The notes: generated by a model from the letters alone, not told the origin. A DNA stretch of 64,000 bases from Botryllus schlosseri (GCA_051294905.1 CM119371.1:9674001-9738000), one strand, 5' to 3'; counted from the stretch's first letter, positions 9,368 to 58,140 are shown. Translations and numbers: made by a program.

Positions 9368-9407
9368 CCGAATGGAGGCGTGGGTTCGAATCCCACTTCT
9401 GACACCA
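9368..9407 (-). promoter_or_regulatory. Primer-binding site complementary to tRNA-Leu 3' end (extended, 40 nt)
   Basis: Plus strand reads ccgaatggaggcgtgggttcgaatcccacttctgacacca = part of the variable arm, T-arm, acceptor stem and CCA of a eukaryotic tRNA-Leu (CAA-type as recalled). Confidence 0.92.
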
Positions 9408-9409
9408 AT

Positions 9410-9675
9410 TGTTATGTTCTTTGGTCTTGTTTGAACAATAACTCAATACGACGAGGTTGCAATAAGAAATCAGTATATTGTACAGCAGAATAACTATCAG
9501 ACAGTCGACACGATCCAGAGTGCAGTTGAATGAAAAGACCACGAGTCAACAGAACACAGGGTATAAATACAAGCACGACACACAAGGAAATAATGATTGG
9601 AGTTAATTACTAGTCCTATAGAAATTAGGAGACACGTAGGAAACAACACTGAAACGTAAATGCACGAACATAACA
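9410..9675 (-). repeat. 5' LTR
   Basis: Direct repeat of 5738-6003; followed on the minus strand after 2 nt by the TGG-starting PBS. Confidence 0.95.
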
Positions 9676-18630: not shown

Positions 18631-18773
18631 CATATTTCCATAGTATCCAAACATATTTTGGTCCCTAATCCGGTCTGTGAAATAATCGGGCATGCTATAG
18701 TTGTACCAGCCAGAAATCAAATTCTTCACAGAAAAACTCTGCGACACGGCATGTAATATTGTTGCCCTGTAAT
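18631..18773 (-). CDS. Intelectin-like gene, exon 7 (non-intelectin sequence; gene continues further downstream)
   Basis: ttttcag acceptor 136 nt after exon 6, phase 1 matches; open frame DYRATILHAVSQSFSVKNLISGWYNYSMPDYFTDRIRDQNMFGYYGNM, gtaggc donor. Confidence 0.7.
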
Positions 18774-18909: not shown

Positions 18910-19072
18910 CGTTCCCAGCGGCAATAGGAAAGTGATCGCTGAATAATTTTTTTAGATTTCCTCCGTACTTCTGTAGAAATTGATTGGCCGACCGATATTT
19001 CAACATGGTTCCTGATTGCATTGAATCTAATTTCCCCTGACTGCGGACATGCCACACCATCACATCAGACGC
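18910..19072 (-). CDS. Intelectin-like gene, exon 6
   Basis: ASDVMVWHVRSQGKLDSMQSGTMLKYRSANQFLQKYGGNLKKLFSDHFPI matches intelectin A.D..IWHVPN........LRY.T...FL...G.NL......P; tttacag acceptor, gtaaga donor. Confidence 0.92.
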
Positions 19073-19298: not shown

Positions 19299-19390
19299 GT
19301 CTATTTTGTAATAGCCTTCATTTTTGTAGTCGTCTTGCATACAGTTACGTACATTCCCAAACGTTATTTGGTTTTCCCAGTTCGTCTTCC
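19299..19390 (-). CDS. Intelectin-like gene, exon 5
   Basis: GKTNWENQITFGNVRNCMQDDYKNEGYYKID matches intelectin G.GNWAN..TFG....ATSDDYKNPGY.DI; tcgcag acceptor in phase 1, gtaagt donor. Not in the ORF track. Confidence 0.93.
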
Positions 19391-20749: not shown

Positions 20750-23119
20750 CAGGAGTCACCAACCTTTTTGCAACCGAGGGCTACTTTTGCGTAATGATTG
20801 AAACGGCGGGCTACTATTTACTCCCGCCGTTTACCCGTGTCACACTGTATTTCCGCTTTGATATCCATAGCACTGGGCAGGACTGGACATCATGTTATCT
20901 GTTTCTATAACAGTCAGTGGGAAGCCTGGCATTGTATGAAATCAACTTGTGCGCTGTACTCTATGGTATGTAACTTGACACTGCAATTCTGAGTGAGTGT
21001 TCCAGATGTGCAATTAATTAGGCGTGTTTTGTGTTTGGTTTTGATGAAGTTCATGTCCGAAAAGGCTGATTCACAACAATAAGTTGAACCATAGACGCTT
21101 GCAACCTTCGTAGCTTCTGCGCATAGACCAGGCACTGGCGTCGCAGCATGTGCTGCCGCCCCTGGCTCTCGCTTAAAATGCCGCCCCTAAGTAGACAGCA
21201 GCAAATTTCGACATATATTGATTTCCAAACAATCTTTTCAATACAAATAATTACAAATAATATGCCGCATCTCAGCCTCACCGTCTCAACGTTAATAAGG
21301 CCAAAAATAATGCAGACGAGAAATAGCGAACGAATGTATTGTGCAATTAGAAAATCAATAGCCGCCTCAAAACTTGACTTTTCGGGCTTTCACTAAAGCA
21401 AAATCAGCGATAATATCTTCAAATTGAAGTTTTTGAACGTATTAGTCTCTTTCCATAGACAGAATGGATGGAGCTGATAGCCGATCATCATTCATGGTAG
21501 AACGTAAATAAGACTTGATCAGTTTGAGCTGTGAGAAGCTCCTCTCACAGCTTGCAATTGAAACACCAATGGTCAGATAAAGTTTCAGACACGAGCATAA
21601 ATATGGTGACGAATCAAGTAGCTTTTCATTAACTAACCACTGTAAAACATCAAACGCTGTTGCACTACGAATAAACGTGGTTTCACTGCTCCATACCAGC
21701 CTCTTAAATCTGTCAATTTCCACAGCTAACTCCAAAAAGTCCACCTCGTCGTCATAGATGCTTTTAAATCCGCTGGTGAATAAATTGTGACTTTCGCTTT
21801 GCAGCAGCGCGTGGGGATTAAAAAATCCATACTTGTAAGTGGTGTAGGCTATGCCGGGAAACCTAGTTTGAGCTTCAAGGTTAGTTGTCACACTTGAATA
21901 CCCAGACAGGCTTACTGCTGAGCCAGCTAAAAGCAGCATAATTGGTCATGGTCATCCTATAGTTGGCGCAGGCCCTCCGACCGCTCAAATTTAACAAAAC
22001 TGATCTTAATCGAAAGTTATTGTTGCCCTGATTCCGGAAATACAATTTAAATGCTGGTCTGAAAATTGGTATTGCTCCGAATAATCGCTCGATACAATTG
22101 CCATTATCATGGTCAATTGGTCAGTGTGTCGCGGCGCTCCGATTGTTAGGAACAATCAGCCTTGACGGCTATTTTGGAGTGGTTCCATTGCCATGTTAAC
22201 ATATTAATTCGTGTTTTCTGAATCAGCGCGACACTATAGCTTTTGATTGAGACCATTTGATTCAGTTTTACCTCACGGGATGTCAGCTTTTGGACTACCA
22301 ATTACGCTGCTTTTAGCCGGCTGTGTACAACTGTACAGTGTACACTGTGCAGTGTGCAGCCTCATTTTGCCGCCCCCTTGGAGCCTGCCGCCCCTGGCGC
22401 GGAGCCAGAACCGCCAAGTGGCTGCTACGCCACTGCACTGCTGTACTTTTCCGTATCAACAAGCCACCAAACGTTTGCTGCAGACTGAGGTGGGGGTAAT
22501 TTTGCAGTGTTACAATTTCAATCTCCAACGGTTCAGCATCCAGAAATGACAAGATTTAATTATACCGGACAGCAGCAACGATTACATAAAGTTAGAAACA
22601 TGGTATACTAAACTGTGTTGAGTGTAACAGAAACAAGCTGTGTCAAAAGATGCAATACGTAATGGGTATACAGATATCCAAAATCTGTTGGTACTTCACG
22701 GCAATCTAACTCCGAATAGTAATATTGTTTACTACTTTGGCATTGTCCTGGACGTCGAGCTATCATAACGGAGCCCCCGCCATTTCAGGAAGACCGTGAA
22801 TGTCATTCCGTCATGTAGCCTGTATATGCAATGCGCCGTATCTTCAATTTCTGGTGATTCTATCACATACATCTATATCTTAGTAATTGTAATTGAGGAT
22901 ATTTTTAAAGTGTTTATATATGTAAGTTATCCATGTTACTGTATTTTAAACAAAAATAGCTGAATCAAGCAATCTATATATTTAAAAGCTCGGTGGTGCA
23001 AATCTGAGGAATATTGGTAAATGCTGCCATTCCACCTATTTTTAGGACGGGCTCGCGGGATACTCACCAAGTCCTCGCGGGCTACCCAGGGCCCGCGGGC
23101 ACCGGGTTGGTGACCCCTG
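20750..23119 (-). mobile_element. hAT (Charlie-type) element with transposase remnant, middle layer
   Basis: Ends caggagtcaccaacc / ggttggtgacccctg; perfect TSD atgtaggc; remnant KVASVYGSTYCCESAFSDMNFIKTKHKTRL. Confidence 0.9.
21133..22435 (-). mobile_element. hAT element with transposase C-terminal remnant, inner layer
   Basis: Ends cactggcgtcgcagc / gctgctacgccactg (no clear TSD); ORF 21442-21939 has LKLYLTIGVSIASCERSFSQLKLIKSYLRSTMNDDRL (hAT dimerisation domain, ZMYM1-like type). Confidence 0.85.
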
Positions 23120-35775: not shown

Positions 35776-36254
35776 CAGGATTGTAACCGAGTCACAAGGC
35801 TAAGAGTCACAAGTCAATCTCACTGTTATATTTTCGACTCTAGTCAAGTCGAGTCCTTTTCAATTCACCACCGTGTCAAGTCCGAGCTCAATTCAGCGAA
35901 AAGAGGGTCGAGTGTGAGTTATGGTATAATGACTCGAGTCTGAGTCTAAGTCATTGTGTTGACTGCTCAGTTTCCAGTTGATGTCTTGGTAAGCTCACTT
36001 CATATAACTCTGTTTGGTGATATCGAATGTTTCGAGTTTATAATATACTAATTTCCCTCACTTTTAGCAGTTTCTGGTCGCATACCAGTACCAATAGACA
36101 AAATTCTAACGACAGTCTGGTTACGTTGCTATTCTTCAAAATGACGATGAAATGTCGGTCTTGGCCGTCTGAGGCTCGAGCCATATGACTTGAGTCGAGT
36201 CATTTTCGTATTTTTAATAAATGACTCGGGTCAAGGCGAGTCATTACAACCCGG
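35776..36254. mobile_element. GACTCGAGTC-family hAT MITE
   Basis: Ends caggattgtaacc / ttacaacccgg; TSD cgggtgac/caggtgac; colinear with 62445-63029. Confidence 0.85.
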
Positions 36255-36624
36255 CAGGTGACCCGGCAGGTGACCAAACAGTTACCCACATGTGGCACAA
36301 GAGAAGGTTTTAAGTGGGGAGGTGATATTTCAGACTTGGAGGACAGATTCTAGGTGGATCAGTGCCTGATCATATTTTATTTATTATTTTTTGGAATTGG
36401 TGCAACAGTAGCTTTCGATCAAGATCAGATTCGAATGAAACTGCAAAATCGGTTGTTGCCGTTCCATGTTTAATTTCTATAGTTAAACTAAAACGTAAAA
36501 GGGTCAGACACAATATGAGACGCAATCGGACAGTTATAAAGGGTTCACTTTGGCGTTTAATTTTCCGTCTCATAAATGATTTTGAAATATTGGTTGAATG
36601 GACATTGGATATTTCTACTCATAC

Positions 36625-36754
36625 CTGTGTATTGCTCACCCCCAGTATAAGCGGACCATCTGTCGTCAAGTGCACATTTTGCAGTGATTTTGCTTTCATG
36701 AATGCTCGCAACCAACGTCCACCCACCTCCGTCAGTTTCCATTTCGCAATACGC
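36625..36754 (-). CDS. Intelectin-like gene, exon 4
   Basis: AYCEMETDGGGWTLVASIHESKITAKCALDDRWS matches the intelectin motif FCDMT..GGGWTLVASVHEN....KC..GDRWS; tgcatag acceptor and CAG|gtatga donor, ends in phase 1. Confidence 0.93.
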
Positions 36755-36839
36755 CTATGCAGAATGAAAAATAATTTGGAACGCATCGACAAAAGATTAA
36801 ACTCCAGCTTTTCATTTTACTGTAACCCAGATACAATAC

Positions 36840-36957
36840 CTCATACAGTTCGGTTCCGTTAACATCAAGGTTCAACGACTTGATTCCACTGCGATTGAAT
36901 CCTCGGTGTTTCAGGTCCAAGCAAGTTTCGCTGGTCGGATATATTGTACCATGTCCA
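36840..36957 (-). CDS. Intelectin-like gene, exon 3 (start of fibrinogen-like domain)
   Basis: SGHGTIYPTSETCLDLKHRGFNRSGIKSLNLDVNGTELYE resembles the SC..I.....DG.Y.L....G..Y segment of intelectins/FReDs; ttcag acceptor, GAG|gtattg donor, 85-nt intron to exon 4. Confidence 0.85.
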
Positions 36958-39900
36958 CTGAATTGTTTCATACCATAGGCATTTTGAAAATATGTATCAA
37001 TTTCCATTTTAAGAGTGTGAAAGTGGAAAAAGTGAAAAATAAATGTTAAATGTTAAATGATGTTAAAGTGAATGCGACCCTAATGCCATTACATCCATAT
37101 TGGCGCTGAAACATAATTTGGAATGTATGATGATGGTCAGCTACGTCAAAACAAATCGTAAGTGTCATAATTTTTATCCTTCCCGCAGTAACATGATCGG
37201 AATGAAATCAAAATCTCAATTCGATGCTAATCAACTTATATCTGTATTCATTGGTTTTTGTTTATTGGATCACGATAGGTCTATTAGCAATTTTCCTAGT
37301 TCAACGGTTAAGTTTATCAAAAATTTTATCGGCTCAATGCACCTCAGAAATTGCGATACAATGAAAAGTTAGGAAAAGATAGGTGTCGAAACTACTTGGA
37401 CTAGTCATTGAGATCAGATTATTAGGTGAGATTTCGTCACATGTAGATGGTTATCAGCAAGTTGGAGTGCGACATTAGAGTTGGGGGAGAGGGCTATTAG
37501 GATTAAGGGAGAGGGATATGTGACGTTGAACGTGGGAAATTCAAATTATAATTGCGGAAGTGCGGAGTTCACTGGTGACCGGTATCCCACATAAATTATA
37601 TTAACATAGAATTTTGTGGCCACAGCATATCTATTTCGCTCGAAACTTTATGAAAATTATGCACACAGCGCGAAAACAGCCGTTGAATGTATCGGTCTGG
37701 GTCTCTCTGTCTCGTTCGAAGAACATATAACTTCTACTTGGCAAACTGTATATAGCAAAAAGTAAGTAATTAAATCGCATAATATGACGAGATAGAAACA
37801 CCGGAAATTAGATTTACTTGATTAGGTGCAGCAAGTAGAGTAAAATTACTTGAGTGCTTACTAAAACTAGAAGTAGCCTACTTCGTTACTGACCACCTCT
37901 GATTTTTAGCTTATCCTGTGATTCTTACAGCGGACCGCCGAGGACTTCGTTCTCGGTATGGCATTGACGCAAAAATACGGCCAATTTTGTCTACCTATTT
38001 TAGCGAACGGGACCACTAAGGAAAACATTTCGTCGATGGATCACCGTGCCTTTAGCATCCGATAAATGAATTGCTCACAGCAGCCAACGCCACAAGGAAT
38101 GTATGCATATACATGTGGTTTATTTTCTCATATCATGCCTGCTGACGGCAGAAATTGCCATGCCGCTGCAGTAATGTATGCTTTTTCGCAGATGTCATTT
38201 TACTACCGTTGATAACCTGCATTTCGTGACGAAGGCACAATATATGACATACTATTACTAGGATTTTATGAAAATGTCTTAAGCAGATAATTCCACATCG
38301 TACAAAATTGTAGCAATCACGCCCTGTCGCGCGCTTATCTTATTAGTTTTTCCACTGAAGTCTGTCGGTTTGGTATCAAGTCGAATAATTTGAAACCTTC
38401 ATATGTTCTCTCGAGTGAATCCGGTAACCACGATTAGGCGAACCATTGGTATGAATTATGATGTCTCATAATGTAGATGCTCTGTAGTGAAGTACTTATA
38501 CGCAAACGAGGTCAGTAACCAAGTACTTCTACTTTTCCGAGGAACTTCCCTCTACTTGCAGTACTTGCTCCAGTAAATCTAGTATTCGGCTTATACTTAT
38601 ACTTCCAGTTATTCATATTTTCACTATTTAAGGGTTGTCAAGTAATATCACGTACTGCTAATAGGAGTGAGAGAAAATGAGACAAAGACTAAGAAAATTA
38701 GGCTGATTTCGCGGAGAGAGACCAGAATTGTTGTTATGCTTAGCGCGAAATATATATGGAGCAGACAATATCTTTCCAAGAAAGTCTCGATCAAGATAAT
38801 ATTTGCTGCCGTTATGTGCTTCATATGCGTAATTTCATGCTGTGACAATTACATCACAGCAAAAAGAACAAATCAAAACGTTGATGATTGTTTTCAATTG
38901 CTTTCCTAATCTAATAAAGCATTTATGTAGTATCCGATACAATTTCAATACGGTCAAAAAATACACGTGAAGATGGCTTATTTGGCACATGACTAGAAAA
39001 TCAGAATAACTCAACGGAGAGTACAATCGGAAACCGGGTTTCCGAGCACCACGTCGGACAAATGGCAGTTTTTTAGTAAATTCACCAGCGATCATAGTTA
39101 GGTGAATACATTTCCCGATTATATATCCTATTTTTCGGATCCGTAAATATGGGGGTTAAAATTTGTGTCTAGATCGATAAGAGGACGATGAGTCGAAAAA
39201 GTTGGGCAACCACTGGTATGAAACAACATTTTCAATAGCAAAGTAATCATTTGTAACCCATGATGCGGTCGAATCCTTATAGTGTTGAATATAGCCTATA
39301 TATGTATATGTATATATATCCTGCAAGGGGTGTATAGCAAGACGAACACCAAGCCCACTGCGCCATCTGTATTTCCTTGTTTGACGGTCCGTGAGAGCAT
39401 ATCTGTGGCTACAAAAGCTACTTATTATGTACTTGAGTCGTTTTCAAAGAAATAAAATTATACCACTACTTGAAGTGGTTTTAGGCTGCTTCGAAAATAA
39501 CTAGGAGCCTCATTGACTACTTTAATCACTCATATGTTCGCTGCTTATTGAAGAAATTATGCAACTACGAACACAATGCGTACCACAAGAAAATACTTTA
39601 CAGCAGCTACACGGGCCTTTCGCAAATCCGGGCCAAAAAGCACTTCGTCAGCCGACCCCAAAAAACGCTGGGTTTGGGCCCCCGCTGGGCGATGACCTAA
39701 CCTTCTGGGGGCTTCACTCCTAGACCCGACAGTTGGGTCGATGTTTTGACCCATACTTGTGAGCACATTCCTTCTACACAGTATAAGCAGAGAGTTTATG
39801 TGATATGTAGCTTAATCGCGCCAATAGCGAAAATTTTCGATCATTCATGATTGAATCGACTTTCTCGCAGCCGAATTTTTGGAACACCTTTCGGAGTCAC

Positions 39901-41060
39901 ATGTTAGCCTAAACTTCACTATAAGTTGGTAAGTCGTGGCGCGGTAATGGCTGACGCCATAATCCCGATTTCTCTAAATCATGCGTATTTCTCGGAGAAT
40001 GGCACCTAAGAAGCAAGACATTTAGTGACACTAAAACGCGCCATGCGCGTAAAGAAATTTGAAAACTGTTGGAAAAAGTTTCAAGAGATACGCTATGATT
40101 TATGCGCATTTGCAAAATAATATTGGGCCCTTTTCAAGCTCGGCCCCACTCCAATTTGGCGGCTTCGGGTGCCCCCGTTATGGTCCTGCACAATACGAAT
40201 GAATCGAAAATGAATGATCACGCAAACTGCGCTGTTTAGCGATGTGTCAACTCGTATACGTACTGCACTTGTCGCTCGCATGTCGTCAAAGGAGACGTCT
40301 TGAACTTATAGTCAAATCGAACATGTTTCCAGCCCTAATATTATATCACGAAGTTCTGAATCAGTTCAAAATTTGATGTTGTATTTATTTTATCAATGGA
40401 CAAGCCTTCAACATTGCATCTTGAAAGTAAGGGATAAAATTGTAATATACCTGACAGACCGGCAAGAATGTTGTCGCGGACCGGCGGTTGAGAACCACTG
40501 ATATATAGTACTTTCACAAACAAGCACAGGTTACTACTTATGAATAAACTACTTATATTCTATAATTTCTTTTCGAATTAGTAGCTGTGGGATAAGTTTG
40601 CATCGCTTTTATATGATGATTTGTCATAAGAACTGCGTGAAATAGACCACTGTATATGGTAGCTGAATATACTTTCGATTGTTCCTCCTTTTTATAGCTC
40701 TACTAGTCATTTTACTTTAGACGCGTCTAGCAATTTCAAAAGTAGCCACATCCGAGTAACTACTCATAGTATGCAACCATTCACAAAAGATATCCTTCGA
40801 GCCCCTTACTTTACTGAATAATTTTCAAATCTGTCACTCGTTTTTCCACTTTAACCGTCCTTGACATATGATGGAAATTTACCGGTAATTACGCAGAAAT
40901 TCACCTTGCTACTTCTACTTCTGCTTAAGTAGCAACGCTGACTATACGTAGAGGTTGGCCACATTTGCTTATAACGGTCACATCAGACCTCATATCTAAA
41001 ATATTACCTCAGTTGTGTTCACTGATTCATATATCGGTCAAATGTGGTTTGAATGCTCAC

Positions 41061-41259
41061 CTGCAGGTGCATCCTTCGGAATTATCTTCGGAATTAGGAG
41101 AATTCCGTGCTAGTAATATTGATAAAGTAACCAGAAATGCAACAGTTGAGCACAAGGTGGTTATTCTCCAAACATTCATCCAATTTCTCTTCTTAGGCTC
41201 CTGTGCTATATTGACATTGTCGTATGACTGATTTATCCTTGGCTTTGTAGCAAGGCCAA
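41061..41259 (-). CDS. Intelectin-like gene, exon 2 (tail, hydrophobic segment, stalk)
   Basis: Open frame FGLATKPRINQSYDNVNIAQEPKKRNWMNVWR-ITTLCSTVAFLVTLSILLA-RNSPNSEDNSEGCTC; ttacag acceptor and CAG|gtgagc donor; ends in phase 2, matching the phase-2 start of exon 3. Confidence 0.75.
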
Positions 41260-41388
41260 CTGTAATATTTTATTGTGAGGTTTTTAGTATGCCAACATGG
41301 AAGGACCAGGCATATATGTTTCCCTAACACTTATACTCGAAAAGCACCGATATATGATTTCTCCGTAAGTATAGATGAAAATACTCAC

Positions 41389-41449
41389 ATTTCGTGTAGA
41401 CCTGATTTACTCTGCTCAAAGTTTCTTCGTATGCATGTTGATCTTCCAT
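41389..41449 (-). CDS. Intelectin-like gene, putative coding exon 1 (cytoplasmic tail: MEDQHAYEETLSRVNQVYTK)
   Basis: ATG at 41449 with an in-frame upstream TAG; 61 nt ending in phase 1 at a gtgagt donor, matching the phase-1 acceptor (ttacag) of the next exon across a 129-nt intron. Confidence 0.65.
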
Positions 41450-42800
41450 TTCATAGTCCTATGAGACTACGAAAGTTAAACAAAACACAAAAAGATGAAG
41501 GTTGGTTATGACTAGACGCTAGCTTAGAAAACATCAAATTTCCTGCGACAAAATGTATATCAAATTTCCCCTATTCATACCGACTTGTTTTGCATAACTC
41601 CCCATGCAATTATTCCCACGAGTATCGAAAGTGTTCAAGAAAAACGAATCATTCAACTATATGTGGTGTCGCAAATACGACCACCAGGTTTATCTGCTCT
41701 GGTAGCATAGATATGAAATGATATCATAGTAATAGACGGCAAATCTGTAAGTAATCCTACAATGCAATTTGGTCTGGATCGATCGACCAATATTTTATGT
41801 CTTCGCTATCCGCTTGAAACTAAGATTGCAGTGTACTAATAATGTTGACTGCCCAGCGTTTCCCTACCATAATATATCGTTTCATCAAGTCCGTGAACAA
41901 ACCGGGAATTCCTATGAATACACATCAATAATATTTCATCATTCATAATTGGATATGAGGGAGAGGTATGTTGATGTAAGGACACAGTTCGATAATACGA
42001 ATATGATGCAGACTATAAATATTAACCGGAATTCGTACCATGGAATGAGGGGGAAATGATGTCATTGACTATTTCCTGTACAAAATTGTGTTTGTTAGCT
42101 TGTGGCCCACATATCACATATGAGGGTCAATATGTCTTATGTCTCTAAATCAGTGCTTTTCAACCTGTGTGACGGTTTGCACTAGTCCGAATGAAAAAAA
42201 TTTCAGTGCGAATGACAAGCATCATGCAAATGAAAAATCCGGATGAGCGCGAATAAAAATTATCCATGTTTTTCACTTTTTCCGACGTGGAGTAATTTAA
42301 ATGAATGTAATTAGTTATTAAATACAGTGAGCCCGTAACTTTTGTCGTTTGGAAGCAATTCTAGAAACTTGTTGGTAGCTATAGACTTTTCTAGTTCACA
42401 AGTTAGGAACGCTACCCATCCCTGTATATTGCAAAGTTTGAGAGAACAGTTCCGAGCGAGAGGATTACGTCACTGCCTGGAAAATAGTAGTGGAATCAGT
42501 ATCACTGTTGCTCGGAAACATCCGCCGCGTACGGACCTTGTAGGAATGTAGGCAATAGTAGCCGATGCCAGTGTTGACATTTGGCATATTTGATTGCAAA
42601 CTATTGGAATTTTGGCACATATTTATGTTCGTTAACAGCAGAATTTTGCGTTTCTTCAACTATAACAATTAGCCCATTAGATCTATAACAAGTGTTGTTT
42701 AATCGTGTACCAAACCAAGGATTAGAGGCTGCTAAAAATAACATTAGTGCAAGCACATTGGTTACGTCCGATGAATATTTATCTTGCATTACGTCGAGAT

Positions 42801-44426
42801 AGGGGTCACTTCTCTTTAGAAATGAATTTTACAGCTGTTCACGTTTAGGGTCATAAATTTCCAACAGTAGATACCAGCCCGATGATCCATATATTGTTGG
42901 AAAGAGCAGGGAATTTCCTTCCAGAATATGGTCTGTATGGTCTGTATGTTGAACCATGGGCATATACCCTAACGATTCACAAACTCAAAAATCGATGAAA
43001 ATTTTCACCACCCGTCCTAAAAATCCTAAAAATTCAGAAGACCCTTGAAATAGTCCGTCCAATATTGGTACAGTGATAGTACATACATATGTCTATAAAA
43101 TGATTGAGGGATTTTCAAAAAAGGTTTTCTAACAAAATCTAAAAATTTTCCAGCGAACCCTAAATTTTGATTATTTTCAAAATTATTTCCTCTGTAAAAA
43201 TTTCCATGGTCAAAAGTTCGAGAAAACGCTCAATCACTTTATTATATATACCCTAACCATCATTCGTGCTAAATTTCAGATGAATCCGACAAGCAGAAGC
43301 GGAGCAGATACAATTTTTGTTAAGAAAAAGTCTTTTTGAGAAAAACGCGTTTAAAAAAGTACAACCACAATAACTTCGAAAATCAACGATATGAACCCTG
43401 CTCTTGTCATCAATGGTCACATTAGTTGATTTACATCATACAGTGAACCATATTTAACACAACCTGAGTAGTAATAGCCGTCATGCACATATTTAGATGT
43501 GTCTAAGGACTCTCGAACTGTTAGACAGCGGTAGAGCGGATGCAGTCTTTCTTTCTTTTAGTCTTTTGAAACCAGTTCGATTTCTGCGACAGTGTTCACT
43601 GGCAAGTTTAGGCTTTCAAGAACCAACTATATCCAATAGTCCAGTTCAGCACTGACAGAGTTACACGTTCTACTGCCACATTTCCAAGGTACATGTTCTT
43701 CCGACACCTTTGCCATATAATCGCACTTTGGTTTTGGGAGAGTCCACAATATGCATCTTTTCAATATAAATATTGTTCTTAACCTCTACATTTCCTTGAT
43801 CGACTCATTCTAGGCTTATTGATAGCTAGAAATGAAAACCAATCCAAGACAACTATCAAAAAACAAATACTACCCAATAATTGTCAGTCATCACTCATCA
43901 TTCAATGAATAGAAAAAGATGAAATAGAAAAAACAAACAACCTCCACCTTGACTGTTTGCTTGGTAATGAATCAGTGAAGCAGCCAAGTATATGGAAGCA
44001 GACATGCTAGAACACGTATTCATCGAAAGACAATAAATACTACCCTATATTTTCAGTTATCAGTCAACAAATCAAAAAATAAATGAAAAAACAACCTCAC
44101 CTCTCGTGTTTACTGAATCAGTGGAGCAGCCAAGTTTATGACGGAAGACCGGCTAGAACACTTATTTCAAGCACTGTACAACATAGATCTCACCAGGTAG
44201 CGTTATTTTCACCAGCGAAGGTGAATGTTTGATTAGAATGACCGCAACTGCAGCAAAAGTTGGGCTGTAATCATTTTTTTAATAAAATGGGCCCCAAAAG
44301 AAGATAATTTTAAATAAGAATGAGTTGGAATAGCATAAAAATAATGACTTATTTAGAAAGAGCGTGAAAATTCCGTTCTAGATCGACGAAAACAAAAAAA
44401 AATATTTCTAAAGAGAAGTGACCCCT
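42801..44426 (-). mobile_element. Kolobok-like DNA transposon derivative
   Basis: 23-bp perfect TIR aggggtcacttctctttagaaat; minus-strand remnant at about 43520-43740, QNQSAIIWQRCRKNMYLGNVAVE, resembling Kolobok (Mutator-like) transposase TQN.NES....IW..CPK; TTAA TSD not preserved. Confidence 0.72.
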
Positions 44427-45180: not shown

Positions 45181-48100
45181 CTATATATACAAGTTACATG
45201 CAATAATAAACTCGGCGACCGGCGTAAATAATTGCGGCATAGTGAGTAAATTGGTTAAAGTAAGCGGTACATTGAGCGTGGTACAAGCGTAGGCAAGAAA
45301 TGTTCGGTGAAAGTCATATTTTTCGCAATGCAAGAGTATGTGGTCAACCGTGTCGGGGACGTAACACACATTACAAAGGGGGGAGTCGGCGCAACCTATT
45401 TTGAATAGGTGAGCCGCCAGGCGACAGTGACCGGTTTGGAGGCGAAACAGGATTTTTTCAAATAGGCGATTTCGGCAGGAATCTGGCGCCTCTGTTGCTA
45501 TAGATGGTCGCAACATCCGGTAGTGGTGCCCTCTCTCCTCTGCAGTGAACTCGGCCTGCCATTGGTCTCTGCAGAGCTTTCGGGTGACCGCTTTCGCCTC
45601 TGATAATGTTACGGTTGGGATATCGATACCGGGTTCCCGCGATTGACTTGATGCAGCCCGAGCTAGTTGGTCAGCCTTCTCGTTGCCCTCTATTCCGGCG
45701 TGACCTGGTATCCAGGCAAATGTTACCATGCCACCCGTGGTCTTTATCTGTGAAAGAATATCAAATGAGAGATATATTTCCTTATGCGGCTTACGGGTAT
45801 GCGGGGATGACAACGCCCTCAGGGCCGCCAGGCAGTCGGAAAAAATCACATAGCGTCGATTCGTGGAGCTGCTGTGTTGTAGTATCCACATCATCGCGAA
45901 GACTATAGCTTTCAATTCGGCTGAGAATGAGGAAGATAGAGTCGGGCAAGCCCGATTATAGCAATACGAATATTCTGGGACGTAGACCCCAAGTCCAGCA
46001 CCATATTCAGTCTTTGAACCATCAGTAAATATATGGACGTGTTCGCCAAATCTTTCAAAGATAAAGTCGAGACATCTACATTTGATGTACTGGGGTACGT
46101 CCTGTTTCGAGACTAACCTAGATAGGTCGATATCAACGCATGGAATCGGTAAATCCCACGGAGGGGAAGGGGAATCGAATCGCTCGATCACCATGTTTTC
46201 AAAACAAGCTGCCTTCGTTAGCGTGTTAAAAGTATTGAATCTCGGATTTATAACACGATATATTTCATGCCACGAGTCTTCGATAATGTGCCGAGATGAG
46301 TGGCTGCTCGCTGGATGACTAAGCAGAAGACATCGGTAGTTTAGGCTTAGGTATCTATGGCGAATGTGCGGAGGCATTTCGCAACAGGATGCTTGCAATG
46401 CGCAAATCGGTGTACTATGCATAGCTCCGCAGATAATTCGAAGTGCCTTGTTTTGGATTTTCTCCACCTTCACCAGGTGGGATTTCGGGGCGAAGAAGTA
46501 TGCTGGCATTCCATAATCGGTAAGTGATCGTATCATTGTCCTATAGATTATCAGTAGCGAACTCTTGCCAGCGCACCACGAGGTTCCAGTCAGAAGACGC
46601 AAAGCGTTCAATCTGTTGCTACATTTCTTCTCGAGATACTCTATATGGCATTTATATGACAACAATTTATCGAAAACAACCCCAAGATATTTAAAATTGT
46701 CTACAAAGCTGAGTTGCGTGCCGCCGATACGTAGAGACACGGATGGCAGTGATCGCTTTCTTGTGAATAGCATCGCCACCGATTTCGTGTGCGATATTTT
46801 GAAACCCCACTGTTTACACCACAGTTGAATCGATGTTAGGGCTAACTGGACCGCAGAGATGTTGGATTCCACGGATAATCCACTTTCCCATATAGCACAA
46901 TCGTCCGCGAATAATGCATGCTCACACTGAATAACTGTAGGAAGGTCATTAATCATCACGGAGAAGAGTAATGGCGAAATAACGCAACCTTGGGGTAAAC
47001 CATTTTCTAGAATGTGATATCGCGACAACGAGCTACCCACGCGGACTTGGAAGGTTCTGTTTTTTAGAAATTCTGAGATCCACCTAAGCATGTTTCCTTT
47101 AACCCCCATTTGTGACAGCTTGTGGATGAGGCCAGTTCGCCAAACCATGTCGTATGCTCGTTCTATATCAAGAAAAACTGCCGCCACCGATCGTTTATTA
47201 TGTAACGCTTTATAAACAGTGTCATGGACTCTCAGAATATGGTCGAGCGTGCTGCGACCATGGCGAAAACCCGATTGACATCTATTTAGCAGATTCTTGG
47301 ATTCCAAGTACCATCGTAATCTGTTCGTGACCATAGTTTCCATAATTTTACTGATGTGACTTGTGAGTGAGATGGCGCGATAGGACTCCGGCCTAGTTGA
47401 CTCCTTGCCTGTTTTCAAGATTGGGGTGACGATGGAGTGTTTCCAGGCCCCCGGAACGCATCCTGTTCCCCAAGAGCTATTTATAAGGGCAAGAAGCTTG
47501 ACAACAGCAGCGGATGATAGACGTTTGATCATTGCATAGCAGATGGAGTCATCTCCGGGTGCCGTGCTTTTGCGTGACCGTAATGCAACATTAAATTCTT
47601 GTAGCGTAAATGGTCTATCGAGAGGACTATTTAGATTATTTTCATTAACCATGTCGCTGATGGGGTGTGATTTTTCGAAATCGGTTTTCGTGAGCAGGAA
47701 GTCAGGGTCGTAGTTTTCGGAGCTGCTAACGGAAGCGAAAGTCGATGCCAGCATATTTGCCTTGCTCAAGTCGCCGATGGCGTTACTGTTATTCGAGATA
47801 AGAGATGGTATAGACATGGAGCTGTATTTACCCGAAATCGAACCAATCGTTTTCCAGACCTTCGCTATTCCCGAATGACTGTTGAGGGTATCGCAGAAAC
47901 GTTCCCAACTTAAGCGTTTTGATCGCAATATAGTTCGGCGACATTCGGAGCGGCGTTTTTTATATTCTATGACGTCACGCGTGGTGAAACTACGTTTCAT
48001 CATTTTGAAAGCTGCTCTTTTGCGGCGGATGGCGCGAGCGCATTCCGGTGTCCACCACGGTACTGGGATCTTGTCTGTGGATCTAGAGCGCGGAATGGTT

Positions 48101-48918
48101 TCGGTGGCTGCGCGATTTAAAGCGTCGACAAAAGTGGAATTTAATGTTTCCACATCATCCTCGAGTACACCCGCCAGCGAATCGTCGACACATATTGAGA
48201 ACCTCTCCCAATCAGCTTTCCCAAGCAACCACTTCTGGGGTCTAGGCGAGGAGCGAGTTATTCTGTCATTGATTGTTGTAAAGATAACAAAATGATCGCT
48301 TCCTATGAGGGTGTCGGAAACGGAAGTGTTGCATCGCGCGGCAATATCACCAGAGGCTACGGTCAAGTCCAAAAGAGACCACCTGTTTACTGCCGTTGTG
48401 GAGATGTTCAGACGAGTGGGCTGGGATGAGTTCAGCAAAACCAGGTTGTGTTGGTCGAGGGAATCGTAGATCGCTTTGCCTCTGGCGTTCAAGCAGTGGC
48501 TCCACTGTAGGTGGTGGGCATTGAAATCGCCGCAAATGAGTGACCGAGAGGAAAAGTGACGTAGGCATGCAAGATCGTTGCTGCCGATAACAACGTCGGG
48601 GGCCATATAAACGTTACAAATGTTTATTTATTCCGCTAACGTTAACGCATAACATTTCAAAACACGCCGATTGAAACCATAGCCAATCGAGGATGACAAT
48701 GACTCGTGCACAAATGTGACGAGGCCACCGGAGTGTTATGTCTTATCTCGTCGATACAGATGGTATCCCCGTAGCTTCGGGGAGTATTTCGCAACGAGGT
48801 GCGTCTCTTGAATGAGTATAACATCCGGTTTAATGGTTAGGGTGGATACAAATTGTTTGAACTCGTTCAATTTTCTATATATGCCGCGACAGTTCCATTG
48901 GAGAATAGAGAGTGTTCT
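45181..48918 (-). pseudogene. LINE ORF2: APE endonuclease, RT, RNase H, C-terminal CCHC
   Basis: ILQWNCRG, IQETHL, GDFNAHH, GSDHF (APE); GLPQG, FADD (RT); FTDGSK, SAELKAI, FSDC, WIPGHAGIEGNEKAD (RNase H); CNVC..DTVDHILLHC. 1141 aa open from 48606; two in-frame stops between about 48625 and 48740 disrupt the endonuclease. Confidence 0.95.
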
Positions 48919-51042
48919 ATTGAACTTTGCTGCCTTGCGAGACCGGAGAAGATTTATCGACGGAGGGATCTGATGTGTTTGATGCTTGCTGCAATAGATC
49001 GGATTCGACAGAGTAGCCGAAGTATTTACTCGATGCCTTAGCCACGATGTCGAAGATGTTGCTGTTTCCAGTTTTGTATGCTGATACCGTTAGCTGTACA
49101 ACCTCCGCAACAAGCGACAATAGCTGAATTGGGTTGATATTCAAGCTGGACATGGATGTGGTTTGTTTCTGTCGATCTTCACTAATTTGGCTGGGTACGA
49201 CAGTTGAGTTTGAGAGATATCTAAGGTCGCCGTCGTTAGGGGCGGGTGAAGTATAACAACTTGGTTCCTTATTGTTTGTTGAAGACCGGGCTGTAGTTTT
49301 ACGACGATGATGCACTTCGGAATACAGTGTCTTAGCAGAGGTGGTCTGAGAGGTTTCAGAGGTTCGAGATCGTACGATTTCCTTCGCCTCTGTGAAAGAC
49401 ACGTTTGTGCGTTCTTTAACAATTTGAATTTTAGCTTCCTCTTTGTAGACGGGGCATCCTCCATACCCTGCGCTATGCGGTTGGTTACAATTAACGCATT
49501 TTTTCAAGTTAGGGCAATCCTTGTATTCGTGATCACGACTGCTGCATTTCGCGCAAGTAAGTTTACCGCGGCACGAATTCGCGGTGTGACCGAAGCGGTT
49601 ACATTTAAAGCACCTAGTCGGGGGTGGATTATAATGTATTGTCCTAAAGCGAAGATATCCGATTGAAATGAATTCTGGCACTTCCTTGGTACTAAAACAA
49701 AGTAACACCGAGAGACTGTCGGAGACTCCGTCTTCTGGCCTTCTCTTCTTGAGTCGCTTGGCGTAAGTTACATGATAGGTGGCGAAGCTGTCCAATAACT
49801 CGGCGTCCGTTACGTCTAATGGAACACCCGTAATTACAGCTCTGCTGGCGAACGGCCTCGGTGTAAATTTCGACGTTTCGATTGGGATATCGGTATGCGT
49901 CACTGGGTCGCTTAGACTACCGCATGACAACAACTGCGTAACCTGCTTGTGATTGTGACAGGTGATGAGCAAAGAACCGGATTTGTGAAGAGGTTTGATG
50001 TCTTGATAATTGGTGATCAACGCGGACAACGCCCTGTTCACCACTGTTGGGTGATAGCGCAGAATAGACCTTTGTTGTCCTAAAATCACCACTTTCCTAT
50101 CTATGTTATTTTCGTTGTTATCGGGAACAATGCTGGTTTGTGCCGCTGGCGGAGAAACTGTGTTTGCAGGAGGTCGGGAGACACTCCCGGACGTGGGAGA
50201 ACAAACAATATTTGCATTAACATTAGTAGTGCTAGTTTGTAATACAGAATTCTCATCCGCTACTGCATACTTTCGAGCGGGGATTTTGCTCCCACTCGGT
50301 TGAAGCCGGTCACTAACGCCATCACTAGGCTCGTCACTATCCGATGATATAGGATCGGTCGGTTTACGCCAGGGCTGGCCAACCTTTTCGGCCAAAGGAC
50401 CACATTTGATCGACGAACTTTTGTGCGGGCCACTATCCGCGCGAAGCGCGAAAAAAATTTGAAGTTCATAGGTCAATAATATTGTCACTTGACTATATTG
50501 CGGGCCTGCTGTATATCGCTGGGCTAAGTTTCCGAGGACTGGGCTATTCGGTGCATGGACAGATCGATATCGAAAGCTGTGACCAACATGCGTCAATCAT
50601 TTCGTGCCTAGGTTTCATGGTCGACGGTCTTACTGCGAGCGCAAACGCAAGGTCGCATATGTTGAACGACACTTTGTCTCGTAATCGCGAATATAGTTGG
50701 ACTCAATCTGATACATTAGGTGTTCTTCCATTTTCACTGAAGGGCAACAATATTAAAAACAAGAAATCGAGTGACAACATATTGCGCTAAGCTTGTAGAA
50801 AATTTTTACCTTGATAAATCTATCGCAAATTATTCTGATCTATTGTAGTGTACGAAGATATACCAATATGTGAATGGCTGATGGATCTGTCAATGCGTTG
50901 GAACTGATATGTTAGTCATCACATCTCAAGTATTGCGGCCGGACTAATCAAATTTTTGGTTGGCCACTCAAAACCTTCTCGCGGGCCACAGGTTGGCCGG
51001 CCCTGGTTTACGCTTTGCCCTCGTATGTTGTATGCCCTCCAT
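48917..51042 (-). pseudogene. LINE ORF1 (gag-like, three zinc knuckles), interrupted by a MITE
   Basis: CFKCNRFGHTANSC, CAKCSSRDHEYKDC, CVNCNQPHSAGYGGC; removing 50370-51005 plus one TSD gives the start MEGIQHTRAKRKPTDPISS from the ATG at 51042. Confidence 0.93.
50370..51005. mobile_element. hAT (Charlie-type) MITE inserted in LINE ORF1
   Basis: TIR cagggctggccaacc / ggttggccggccctg; perfect TSD gtttacgc. Confidence 0.95.
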
Positions 51043-56366: not shown

Positions 56367-57379
56367 ATCTATGTCCAGTTTTCAGTTGTTCATATACTAG
56401 GGTTGCCATACGTCCGGAATTTCCCGGACATGTCCGGAATTTCACTGTTCAAGCTAGCGTCCGGGAGGAATTTCTAAAATATGCCAAATGTCCGGAATTT
56501 TGAAGACTTAACGTGGGCTCATAATTTTTTCGTAAATCAACATAAAAACAATATTTTTTGGGAATATTTATGCTGATGCATCATATTTTTTTATCGTGCT
56601 GCGCGCGATTTACTATCACATTTATTGATTTTAATATGGAGACTACCACCCTCGCAAAAACTGCAATAAAATATAAATAAAAACAACCTTCATTTATCGG
56701 AATAAGCCTAATTGTAAACGCAATTATAGGAGAACGGTATATTCCTAGAGATCGTCAAGGCGGTTTAAAGGCTTCATTCAAAGATAGTGGTTCCAAATGG
56801 GGGGGGGGGTGGGAGGGGGGACTTATGATTTGATATTTTACACCTTGTAGCCTACTTTATAGTCCTACTGTTGTTGACAGGCCATTGTCGGCTCATTGTG
56901 AATCATAAGCGTTCAACTGATACAATTAGGTTGTCATGTTGTAATGCTCAACGTAACGCAATATCCTAACTGTAGCAAGAATGCGTGGGCATTGGTTCGT
57001 ATATCATGGATCGCATGATAGAAATTCGTGATGTAGACAGCATTGTCAGAATGAAGCAACAGGGTGTGTCTCATCTTCAATTGTTAAAAATTACCTATTC
57101 TCGAATGTAGAATGAATGACACATCTTGGTTAAACTTGAAATTTAATATGCATTTAAATATATTATTATTCATCCCATTTTACGACTATTCCATACTGTG
57201 CGAGAGCAAAGGAAAGTAAGATGACTGAGATGGTAATTTCACTCTAGATCTGCGTGCTATATCTCACAACCTTACATCGACTCATAGTTCATACGACAAA
57301 ACGTCAAAGATAAAATATCAATATAGTGGAACGAATATCTTCAAGTGAATGGCCGTATGTAGTTGGACGTGTGGTGGCG

Positions 57380-58140
57380 AGTAATTCGCAGTCACTGCTT
57401 CTGTAAGATTTGTTAGCAGAGGGGTTTGAATATGTGACTCTCAGAAAATTCCAAAGTGATCCGATTGAAAGAAGGTTCCCGCGGTATAGGCAAATGAGTG
57501 GCGGGAGATTTCTGGTGGGTTTAACGGAAGTTACCAATTCTGAAAAGATAATTTTGCTCCGACCCATCCTAAAAATTGAGGTAAACTACTGGGAGCATGA
57601 TATTGGTGTTTCAAGTTCAACTCATCTTGATCATTTCAAACAAGTCATTGAAGATGTGGCGATTGAAATTACCGAATCAGTTGTATCTCCTGACAGCGAG
57701 GACGTGTTTTATGTTGTGGCTGGGTACACAGGTAAGAAGTTCCTCGAAAAATTGTCTTGTCAAATATGTCATGAGTCCTTTTTTGATGCGTCATGTGGCG
57801 CAAGTTCACGGTATTTCGACTTACTCGATCGCGGGGGACTGCTTGCTCCCTCAGAACCACTCGCCAAGTTTGTTGCATCCTGTTTTCAATCCTAGATGGT
57901 TCTGATAAAATCATCTGTTCTTACCTCCAAGTTGCAGTGAGGGAAGCTGGTCAATATGTTTTGCATCGTTTTGAAGGACCTCAAGTTTTTCATGTTGGGA
58001 TCATTGAGATCGAGCTTTAAAATTGGCGGGCAAAATCATTGTTAACATATATAATATAATAACAAGGAGAAGCTGGTAAATGCCTCTGTGAGAATACTGT
58101 CGTGAAGGACTTTCAAAAGCGGCAGTTAAGCAAGACGTAA
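57380..58140 (+). pseudogene. P-element/THAP9-like transposase C-terminal remnant
   Basis: GFEYVTLRKFQSDPIERRF..YRQMSGG, YVVAGY..KK, C..C, LDRGGLLAPS are typical of P-type transposases; frameshifted after about 57890. Confidence 0.82.

Follow-up and report, generated by a model that had tools for sequence, protein, structure and literature searches.

The window, by which we mean the whole 64,000-nucleotide stretch of Botryllus schlosseri DNA analysed here, probably holds the 5' half of a protein-coding gene from an expanded and uncharacterised ascidian family of long-form, type II membrane-anchored intelectin-like lectins. A first-pass annotation had described four minus-strand exons encoding a tail, a hydrophobic segment, a stalk and the start of an intelectin domain, and these are confirmed as sequence features at the places it gave (41449-41389, 41259-41061, 36957-36840 and 36754-36625), bounded by GT/AG sites and with fitting phases. 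Exon 1 (61 nt) opens with an ATG at 41449-41447 and ends in phase 1 at the donor GTGAGT, from which a canonical junction (41389/41259, acceptor TTACAG) leads to exon 2 (199 nt), encoding the remainder of the tail, the hydrophobic segment and a C-T-C stalk. The second junction, 41061/36957, is likewise canonical (donor GTGAGC, acceptor ATTCAG) and leads to exon 3 (118 nt), which encodes the start of the fibrinogen-related domain with its first conserved Cys (the equivalent of the 'SC.EL' of relatives) and two N-x-S/T sequons. Across the third junction of the predicted gene, 36840/36754, lies exon 4 (130 nt) with the intelectin core Y-C-E-M-E-T-D-G-G-G-W-T-L-V-A-S-I-H-E.

The gene exceeds this first description by at least three more exons (19390-18631), located past a 17-kb transposon-bearing intron and also on the minus strand. 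Exon 5 (19299-19390, 92 nt), detected with tblastn and the family HMM, lies beyond the 17.2-kb intron, and its joint with exon 4 gives back the family's unbroken Y-T-G-x-T-N-W-E-N stretch. Exon 6 (18910-19072, 163 nt), detected in the same way, encodes the middle of the intelectin fold (D-V-M-V-W-H-V ... Y-G-G-N-L) and exon 7 (18631-18773) the start of an insert of about 236 residues that is the mark of the long-form ascidian family; the 3' boundary of exon 7 is uncertain, the frame being open to 18544. Under the predicted splicing the seven colinear exons give an open N-terminal part of 302 residues, with all six junctions canonical GT/AG, phases that fit and 302 codons without a stop. Profile positions 312-587 of the family HMM had no match in the window downstream of 18544, so the remaining exons, which would encode the C-terminal half with its sugar and calcium site and the L-x-F-Y-R end, presumably lie beyond the window start. 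Intron 4 contains a hAT fragment, and LINE and LTR elements surround the gene. The sole C-terminal-type exon within the window (57378-57310) is part of the upstream neighbour gene. For annotation the lesson is that the correct topology is obtained only when the gene model includes a first exon of 61 nt and an intron of 17 kb.

The assignment of the lectin head is based on several comparisons. Exon 4 matches intelectins of known structure with E values of 3.4e-14 (7E1E), 1.2e-11 (4WMO), 6.8e-11 (6USC) and 7.5e-11 (4WMQ), and is 75% identical to a Styela clava intelectin-2-like protein; exon 6 matches the PDB intelectins at E 1.8e-4 to 1.8e-3. The N-terminal fibrinogen-related core C-x-M-x-x-x-G-G-G-W-T-L-V-A-S-x-H-E is present in exon 4, and the intelectin-specific middle region (N-W-x-N..F-G, D-D-Y-K-N, D-V-x-V-W-H-V and Y-G-G-N-L) in exons 5 and 6. 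With the family HMM, E values are 6.8e-18, 1.8e-12, 2.9e-20 and 8.8e-8 for exons 4 to 7, respectively, whereas exons 3 (0.36) and 2 (1.6) match weakly, both being colinear. In a midpoint-rooted tree of 32 rows and 230 columns, the gene is nested in a 10-member clade of stolidobranch membrane forms (support 100/99) and has a long terminal branch (1.17).

The insert of the relatives is all-beta, about 236 residues long and placed between the equivalents of chain residues ~186 and 197 (defined on relative P0012); only its first exon is seen in the window protein, namely exon 7 with the HMM match given above. At the human ligand-site stretch the aligned positions in P0012 are only partly kept. In an AlphaFold2 model of another relative, P0005, the N-terminus and the stalk are disordered and separated by one long helix at residues 29-59 (block pLDDT 80-94); the lectin domain that follows can be superposed on human intelectin-1, giving TM scores of 0.84-0.86 normalised to the target. 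The architecture is not new as a prediction, for such proteins are already in public databases as 'uncharacterized' or 'intelectin-like', which weakens the first-pass claim of novelty.

The first-pass annotation had also proposed that RNA be mapped to the junctions 41389/41259 and 41061/36957. Their canonical sites and fitting phases speak for the model, but in samples of approximately 6-13% of three RNA runs and the contigs of one run no splice joint was seen, and in the same material depth was 0 on exons 1-2 and about 0-2 on exons 3-4. Read depth that is zero or near zero on the exons in four RNA runs would be expected of a decaying or silent copy that is no longer a working gene, and the 17-kb intron 4 with its hAT fragment, the surrounding LINE and LTR elements, the lack of a match anywhere in the window to family profile positions 312-564 and the terminal branch of 1.17 point the same way. 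We nevertheless consider decay improbable given that open frames, canonical splice sites and fitting phases are seen in all seven exons, that conserved fold residues are retained, that the RNA sampling took in just 6-13% of each run from unspecified tissues, and that large introns could easily place the remaining exons past the window start.

The protein predicted from this gene begins with a hydrophilic, acidic tail of 52 residues containing Y7, Y18 and Y33, followed by a single 19-residue hydrophobic segment (residues 53-71, window 41164-41108, Kyte-Doolittle mean 2.15) and a short, Cys-bearing stalk (C-T-C). Only 15 of the 281 window ORFs of at least 60 aa contain an equally hydrophobic 19-mer. 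By a heuristic assessment the protein has no cleaved N-terminal signal peptide, its sole hydrophobic segment starting at residue 53 after the hydrophilic tail. Exon 2 encodes a juxtamembrane basic stretch (K-K-R..W-R-I), and 11 of 22 proteins checked have, at the membrane edge, a W with K/R/Q/E directly after it. The type II signal anchor foreseen by the first-pass annotation agrees with the distribution of K/R around the segment (four in the 12 residues before it and one after) and with the layout of its relatives. A search for homologues, which that annotation had also advised, recovered 25 tail-bearing relatives from five species (Styela, two Ciona, Phallusia and Clavelina) and one further transcript, all of which have a tail of 23-110 residues and one hydrophobic segment ahead of the lectin domain; in the tail comparison, all 26 proteins other than the window model have such a tail, one 19-mer with a Kyte-Doolittle mean of at least 2.0 and then the GGGW motif. 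Among 20 named Styela clava proteins fetched, 16 show this tail, segment and lectin layout and the other four begin inside or just before the lectin domain. On topology rules and family comparison, the hydrophobic segment is very probably an uncleaved signal anchor, and the lectin head would therefore lie on the cell surface or in the secretory/endocytic lumen, binding glycans.

If translation instead started at M48 (M-N-V-W-R), just five residues ahead of the hydrophobic segment, the product would be an ordinary secreted intelectin, with the segment serving as a cleaved signal peptide and the upstream part either untranslated or not in the mRNA. Secretion is the rule for characterised intelectins (PMC8213764), exon 1 is without RNA support in the sampled runs, the open stretch of exon 2 upstream of M48 is just 27 codons, and an ATG in another frame is found 5 nt before the proposed start codon, which itself has an A at -3 and a G at +4. 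We regard this start as quite unlikely, since exon 1 is the sole ATG candidate with a strong GTRAG donor in phase 1 within 3 kb upstream of exon 2, and ranks first of 54,612 six-frame window positions against an N-terminal motif matrix built from 13 relatives only. Versions of the matrix rank it 1, 4, 1, 21, 2, 1 and 1, the six variants all placing it within the top 21. Long tails precede the corresponding segment in all of the tail-bearing relatives, and the K-K-R..W-R-I stretch that leads up to and surrounds M48 has counterparts in relatives P0004 and P0005. Furthermore, cleaved signal peptides usually have hydrophobic cores shorter than the 19 residues seen here, and the L and A at positions -3 and -1 before R72, weighed by signal-peptide rules, also count against cleavage. 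Other comparisons of this region were negative in their scope: a gapped HMM built from the 40 N-terminal residues of relatives scored exon 1 at just 0.6 bits (E 130), a database search for relatives with exon 2 alone recovered 0 of 15 candidates at E<=10, and BLAST with residues 1-90 found nothing better than E 0.16, its colinear matches being at E 0.23-2.8, none significant. A Styela isoform pair (P0014/P0015) differs over the initial 23-25 residues, consistent with a separate first exon as in the window gene.

The tail of this membrane-anchored protein carries a motif of its family. Y7 lies within H-A-Y-E-E-T-L of exon 1 (Y-E-E-T-L at 41431-41417), and the YExx[VILM] motif is common to Styela, Ciona and Phallusia, so that the importance the first-pass annotation attached to the tail tyrosines is borne out for Y7. 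Of 19 non-redundant tails from relatives, 8 contain YE..[VILM] compared with 0.64 expected, a count reached in 0 of 5000 shuffles, although the choice of motif followed inspection of the data and paralogues do not count as independent. Y.N is found in 9 of the 19 against 3.64 expected (12 of 5000 shuffles as high). Several family members (P0002, P0003, P0005, P0007 and P0117) are without the tail motif. The second family tyrosine (R-Y-E-N) is replaced by S-R-V-N in the window protein; Y33 lies within Y-D-N-V (window 41224-41213, exon 2), and this YxN, placed elsewhere in the tail, may be a chance occurrence.

These tyrosines had been read in the first-pass annotation as a non-canonical ITAM (Y7/Y18) and as classical YxxPhi motifs, that is, as an immunoreceptor or endocytic tail. 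The 11-residue distance from Y7 to Y18 is within ITAM spacing, and Y-T-K-F and Y-D-N-V match Y-x-x-hydrophobic. An ITAM, however, needs L or I at +3, where Y7 has T and Y18 has F (the hydrophobic residue of the window motif being at +4 from Y7, not +3), Y18 is without a conserved counterpart in the relatives, and the conserved tyrosine pair of Styela is 6 apart rather than 10-12. Of 29 tails, that of the window protein included, none has a canonical ITAM, hemITAM or ITSM pattern and one has an ITIM; the pattern YxxL/I-x(6-8)-YxxL/I that defines ITAM-bearing immunoreceptors is among those with no instance. Nor is YxxPhi enriched in the family, as 6 of 19 non-redundant tails contain it compared with 7.56 expected from shuffles. 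Neither proposal is supported on these counts, and we find it very hard to credit a tail of either kind.

The window protein may have a signalling or endocytic function. In the mechanism we favour, albeit tentatively, a multivalent ligand would cluster the lectin heads, clustering would lead to phosphorylation of YExx[VILM] at Y7 and of YxN at Y33-D-N, and the phosphorylated tyrosines would recruit SH2 adaptors. What would result is a pattern-recognition receptor that signals, related to the hemITAM C-type lectin receptors by analogy and not by homology; this proposal comes from motif conservation only. The next most likely mode of action, possible though doubtful, would be constitutive or ligand-driven uptake by analogy with what has been described for FIBCD1.

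Alternatively, the protein could be a membrane-anchored lectin without tail signalling, in which the motif directs sorting or retention, or the anchor only presents (or, by shedding, releases) the lectin, which would act on epithelia or haemocytes as a receptor for adhesion or clearance, similar to FIBCD1. Stretches that are acidic and contain tyrosine also act as sorting signals, and several family members are without the motif. FIBCD1 itself, a type II fibrinogen-related receptor, is described as endocytic (PMC9994688). Arguing the other way, the conserved pattern differs from the classical YxxPhi sorting signal. The residues that follow the tyrosines, E at +1 and N at +2, resemble SH2-docking preferences. 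We hold a lectin without tail signalling to be a minority prospect.

Applied to the family as a whole, the signalling proposal would mean that the ascidian intelectin fold has given rise to multigene type II cell-surface immunoreceptors, with YExx[VILM], often followed by YxN, as their own signalling module, parallel to the hemITAM, independently evolved and coupling glycan recognition to Src-family/SH2-adaptor pathways. We offer this as speculation, rather unlikely in its full form. The family may comprise cell-surface immune receptors. Predicted membrane-anchored forms number at least 16 in Styela clava, with others in Ciona, Phallusia and Clavelina. Intelectins are treated as secreted lectins in the literature (PMC8213764), and a conserved, expanded membrane-anchored set in ascidians would give this lectin class a receptor mode as well. 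As a phosphotyrosine docking site, the tail motif would offer a testable candidate for linking microbial glycan recognition to cell responses without adaptive immunity, and a design convergent with that of vertebrate type II lectin receptors. If the immunoreceptor-module reading is true, such coupling exists in the sister group of vertebrates. Should the tail just sort or anchor, the family would still be relevant to mucosal and haemocyte glycan capture in filter feeders.

Characterised intelectins, described as secreted multimers with a signal peptide (PMC8213764), share the lectin fold with the window protein, as in human intelectin-1 (4WMQ/6USC), Xenopus XEEL (4WMO) and lamprey serum lectin (7E1E). 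The window protein differs from them in its predicted 52-residue cytoplasmic tail and signal anchor, and the ascidian family adds the all-beta insert. The collagen-stalked long-form intelectin-like proteins P0116 (Ciona savignyi), P0121 (Styela clava) and P0126 (Ciona intestinalis) have the head and insert of the membrane-anchored family in a ficolin-like layout, in which a signal peptide and G-x-y repeats replace the tail and membrane anchor, and are placed outside the membrane-form clades in the tree.

FIBCD1, described in PMC9994688 as a type II endocytic receptor with an extracellular fibrinogen-related recognition domain, has in common with the window protein a type II anchor and a fibrinogen-related head. 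Its head is of the ficolin-type acetyl-binding kind whereas that of the window protein is of the intelectin kind, and FIBCD1 is without the insert and has a different tail. Exon 4 matches FIBCD1 at E 0.041 compared with ~1e-11 or better for intelectins; the anchor is thus that of a FIBCD1-type receptor and the head is not. Among hemITAM receptors, CLEC-2 is a type II lectin that signals via a YxxL preceded in its N-terminal tail by a triacidic stretch, and CLEC-2 and Dectin-1 resemble the window protein in being type II with a short N-terminal tail in which an acidic start is followed by a single critical tyrosine (PMC3576117). Their heads have the C-type lectin fold rather than the intelectin fold, and the hemITAM is YxxL whereas the window motif has L at +4, so the likeness is one of layout only; the strict hemITAM pattern, absent from all 29 tails, together with the intelectin head places the window protein outside that class.

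Among the closest systems are predicted ascidian proteins, for which we found no description of function in the literature searched. The Styela clava proteins LOC120342979, LOC120335122 and 'intelectin-2-like' share with the window gene both a clade and the layout of tail, segment, stalk and intelectin domain with insert, and Ciona intestinalis LOC100185179, Phallusia mammillata LOC100182049 and Clavelina LOC143468938 are predicted relatives of the same architecture and clade. None is a one-to-one orthologue, the lectin part of the window protein being 40-46% identical to the Styela paralogues and its branch long, and the second tyrosine of the Styela motif is missing from it. Many of these predicted proteins nevertheless carry an N-terminal YExx[VILM], as the window protein does.

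The stretch has the base composition of AT-rich eukaryotic DNA (GC 0.36–0.47), and seven exons of an intelectin-like gene could be placed on its minus strand. Exon 1 (41449–41389, minus) opens with an ATG that has A at −3 and G at +4 and ends in phase 1 at a GTGAGT donor, exon 2 (41259–41061, minus) lies between a TTACAG acceptor and a GTGAGC donor, and exons 3 (36957–36840, minus) and 4 (36754–36625, minus), the latter encoding the intelectin core motif, have script-checked boundaries. The two junctions proposed in the first-pass annotation (41389/41259 and 41061/36957) proved exact both on reading the sequence and by the boundary script, and splicing these four exons yields the protein it described: a 52-residue hydrophilic tail, a 19-residue hydrophobic segment, a C-T-C stalk and then the intelectin core motif. 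The gene extends past these exons. Using tblastn with Styela and Ciona relatives, followed by inspection of splice sites, exons 5 (19390–19299), 6 (19072–18910) and 7 (18773–18631), all on the minus strand, were found 17 kb downstream. All six splice joints are GT/AG with compatible phases, the joined exons run for 302 codons without a stop, and joining exon 4 to exon 5 re-forms the Y-T-G-x-T-N-W-E-N stretch that is unbroken in the family. A candidate upstream ORF starts at an out-of-frame ATG (41454–41452, minus) 5 nt before the start; it has 12 codons and overlaps the start codon.

Exon 4 by itself matches four solved intelectin-type lectins at E values of 3.4e-14 to 7.5e-11, as against scores of only 0.002–1 for ficolins, angiopoietins and FIBCD1. 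A family profile built from 11 long-form relatives and scanned over 4271 six-frame ORFs of the window recovers exon 6 (E 2.9e-20), exon 4 (E 6.8e-18), exon 5 (E 1.8e-12) and exon 7 (E 8.8e-8), together with weak, colinear matches to exon 3 (E 0.36) and exon 2 (E 1.6). Profile positions 312–564 have no match anywhere within the 64-kb window, and the 3′ half of the gene is therefore probably situated beyond the window start.

The nearest proteins are predicted ones from Styela clava, with 75% identity in exon 4 and 40–46% across the lectin part. Among 1.84 billion representatives, a profile search returned 6404 proteins at E ≤ 0.001 (123 at E ≤ 1e-30) and a word-indexed search returned 109; from both searches 96 proteins were examined and names were looked up for 20. 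The search for tail-bearing homologues that the first-pass annotation had called for thus found them in Styela, Ciona, Phallusia and Clavelina, many sharing the tail motif, and all the named members that have both a tail and a membrane segment come from ascidians. These comprise 16 of the 20 named Styela clava proteins (in the other four the sequence begins within the lectin domain or immediately ahead of it), five proteins of Ciona intestinalis (P0120, P0132, P0142, P0203 and P0007), one of Ciona savignyi (P0129), two of Phallusia mammillata (P0144 and P0215) and, in Clavelina lepadiformis, P0117 and P0157, the last of which also carries a WSC domain. A maximum-likelihood tree of 32 rows and 230 columns, midpoint-rooted for drawing only, nests the window gene in a 10-member clade of stolidobranch membrane forms (support 100/99), on a long branch (1.17) and with no one-to-one orthologue among the 32 rows. 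A second clade unites Ciona and Phallusia membrane forms (97/93) and a third the vertebrate and classical ascidian intelectins (98/93). The window gene adds one more member to an ascidian family of membrane-anchored, long-form intelectin-like proteins.

Ascidian intelectin heads come with varied N-termini (P0143, P0145, P0116, P0121, P0126, P0157 and P0258): a signal peptide alone, a signal peptide with a ficolin-like collagen G-x-y stalk, a type II anchor, or an anchor with a WSC domain in Clavelina. The long-form insert is an all-beta module of about 236 residues, confidently modelled, that falls between the counterparts of residues of about 186 and 197 of the human intelectin-1 chain and occupies residues 261–496 of relative P0012 and about 300–505 of relative P0005; exon 7 encodes its start. 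No Pfam family was found in the insert of six relatives, an ESM Atlas search of the insert gave only sub-threshold leads, and Foldseek with the whole P0005 model gave, besides intelectins, merely weak beta-sandwich matches (maltose phosphorylase 1H54 and YgjK 3W7W). The module is duplicated in Styela P0008–P0011 and stands in tandem within very large proteins, among them Phallusia P0119 (1914 aa, eight matched stretches). Ciona P0258 is anchored yet has no insert, which suggests that the insert exons are skippable.

The hydrophobic segment of the window protein (residues 53–71) has a Kyte-Doolittle mean of 2.15 and is followed by the C-T-C stalk; a 19-mer as hydrophobic occurs in 15 of the 281 window ORFs of at least 60 aa, so that chance occurrence is uncommon here. 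The earlier proposal of a type II anchor gains from the comparison with relatives. In all 26 tabulated relatives the sole strongly hydrophobic 19-mer before G-G-G-W comes after a hydrophilic tail of 23–110 residues, with basic residues clustered on its N-terminal side, and the window protein itself has four flanking basic residues on that side and one on the C-terminal side. An AlphaFold2 model of P0005 (alignment of 23 sequences, mean pLDDT 76.3) concurs. Its N-terminus is disordered and leads into a single long helix at 29–59 (block pLDDT 80–94); after a disordered Ser/Thr-rich stalk comes the lectin domain, whose superposition on the human, Xenopus and lamprey intelectins gives target-normalised TM scores of 0.84–0.86. 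The 52-residue tail ahead of the only hydrophobic segment, the positive-inside rule, and the location of two N-x-S/T sequons and the disulfide-rich lectin head beyond that segment agree with one another, and by established topology rules the protein is predicted to be N-in/C-out, type II. We consider it very probable that the product is a signal-anchored lectin displayed at the cell surface or in endocytic compartments.

One point in favour of exon 1 is that it is the sole ATG-to-GTRAG segment in the needed phase within 3 kb upstream of exon 2; over 16 kb there are 41 such candidates, and 18 of the 19 that bear the motif derive from one LINE ORF. Among loosely defined first-exon candidates, 3 of 966 contain YE..[VILM]. 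Similarity searches with this region gave exon 1 no backing: with the exon 2 translation as query, 0 of 15 candidates were matched at E ≤ 10, and the first 90 residues gave nothing significant by blastp against all fetched proteins (the best match, at E 0.16, is an unrelated protein), with colinear matches to the relatives P0132, P0004 and P0005 at E 0.23–2.8. From 14 relatives an HMM was derived that covers their first 40 residues in a gappy MAFFT alignment; it gave the exon 1 ORF 0.6 bits (E 130), and its best window match (E 0.65) is not exon 1. At their extreme N-terminus the relatives have a common motif of acidic residues followed by Y-E-x-x-[VILM] and then, usually in Styela, R-Y-E-N. 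A gapless, weighted matrix of 13 relatives only, covering positions −5 to +10 around the conserved tyrosine and applied to all six-frame ORF positions, places the exon 1 site at the top of 54,612 positions (17.1 bits vs 12.9 for the runner-up), and variants with other widths, Styela-only or six non-redundant inputs rank it 1, 4, 1, 21, 2, 1 and 1. Both the motif window and the switch from HMM to gapless matrix were chosen post hoc, when the resemblance had already been seen, so these ranks are supportive rather than a blind test. Two pairs of Styela isoforms agree with the exon layout of the window gene, P0014 and P0015 differing exactly in an initial stretch of 23–25 residues and P0260 and P0112 in the exon carrying the membrane segment.

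Four data sets (X3, X1, X6 and X10, being three raw RNA runs and the contigs of one run) were aligned to 36000–44000, with about 6–13% of each raw run sampled, a share too thin for a verdict on splicing or expression. Among the listed sequencing runs containing the stretch, none is recorded as RNA. Read depth is 0 over exons 1–2 and about 0–2, from X1 alone, over exons 3–4, and no spliced joint falls at an exon boundary in these 6–13% samples, the joints listed lying in repeats. Over intronic stretches (e.g., 38016–38261) X1 shows 0 differences and therefore behaves like low-coverage DNA from the same organism or one very close to it.

Over 36000–36530 and 43480–44000, contigs and reads of all organism-A runs pile up to very high depth and show many fixed differences, which marks these stretches as high-copy repeats bordering the block of exons 1–4. 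Transposon-derived sequence, all on the minus strand, includes a hAT dimerisation-domain fragment (21445–21945) within intron 4 (17 kb), an LTR-retrotransposon pol with RT-RNaseH-integrase (7516–9411) downstream of the gene and a LINE ORF with endonuclease-RT-RNaseH (45184–48627) upstream; a 559-aa ORF with no Pfam match (48920–50596, minus) lies beside the last. Further upstream, the window holds only the terminal exon of a second long-form intelectin-like gene (57310–57387, minus; L-I-F-Y end; profile E 0.002), the sole C-terminal-type exon in the window; the locus is therefore probably a tandem array of intelectin-like genes.

The proposal of a tyrosine-motif tail held in part. The spliced protein has tail tyrosines at 7, 18 and 33, followed by a basic K-K-R..W-R stretch, and the first of these lies in a motif (Y7-E-E-T-L) that appears meaningful: YE..[VILM] occurs in 8 of 19 non-redundant relatives' tails, counted without the window protein, against a shuffle mean of 0.64 (0/5000 shuffles reach the count). 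Y.N, present as Y33-D-N, occurs in 9/19 (shuffle mean 3.64; 12/5000). The motif class originally assigned did not hold. An ITAM is found in 0 of 29 tails, the window protein included, and YxxPhi lacks support as a family feature, Y..[FILMV] occurring in 6/19 tails with a shuffle mean of 7.56 (4204/5000). ITSM and strict acidic-YxxL patterns likewise occur in 0/29 tails and ITIM in 1/29. Y18 (Y-T-K-F) has no conserved counterpart, and the second tyrosine of the family is replaced in the window protein, where S-R-V-N-Q aligns gaplessly with R-Y-E-N-Q of relative P0023. Paralogues are non-independent samples in these statistics; the better argument for the tail motif is its sharing across orders among Styela, Ciona and Phallusia.

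Ciona intelectins are reportedly the subject of Hayashibe et al. 2017. In the literature on ascidian/tunicate, Ciona or amphioxus intelectins we found no description of membrane-anchored forms, which Yan 2013 and Chen 2020 may mention, and the available portions of PMC9953650, PMC10980280 and PMC6321704 do not mention them. Characterised intelectins are secreted multimers, according to the accessible part of one account (PMC8213764), and a tunicate expansion to 22 intelectins is attributed to Yan et al. 2013 in the portion of PMC6321704 available. What is new is the use of the intelectin fold in a predicted type II membrane receptor that has a conserved motif of its own in the tail. The novelty is limited, because public databases already list proteins of this architecture, as unnamed ascidian entries from automatic prediction.

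What the sequence data show is the exon organisation of the gene, the fold and the family to which its product belongs, and the arrangement of tail, anchor and head; any proposal for function is tentative. Src-family kinases favour acidic residues around the tyrosine, and Grb2-type SH2 domains favour N at +2. Multivalent glycans would cluster the lectin heads, as a result the acidic tyrosine motif and the YxN sites would be phosphorylated, and the phosphorylated tail would recruit SH2 adaptors, a sequence of events that we regard as conceivable but on balance doubtful. The ligand-site exons of the window gene fall outside the window, and in P0012 the stretch aligned to the human intelectin ligand-site region is only partly conserved. 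Alternatively, the protein could serve in uptake or clearance; this we judge unlikely, with a precedent in its favour in FIBCD1, which the available part of PMC9994688 describes as an endocytic receptor, tetrameric and of type II topology, whose head is fibrinogen-related. Signalling through a phosphorylated tail has its own parallel in the CLEC-2/hemITAM receptors: although the strict form of their motif is absent from the tails studied here, the tail layout is similar, and in CLEC-2 a triacidic stretch ahead of a single YxxL is critical, according to the portion available of PMC3576117.
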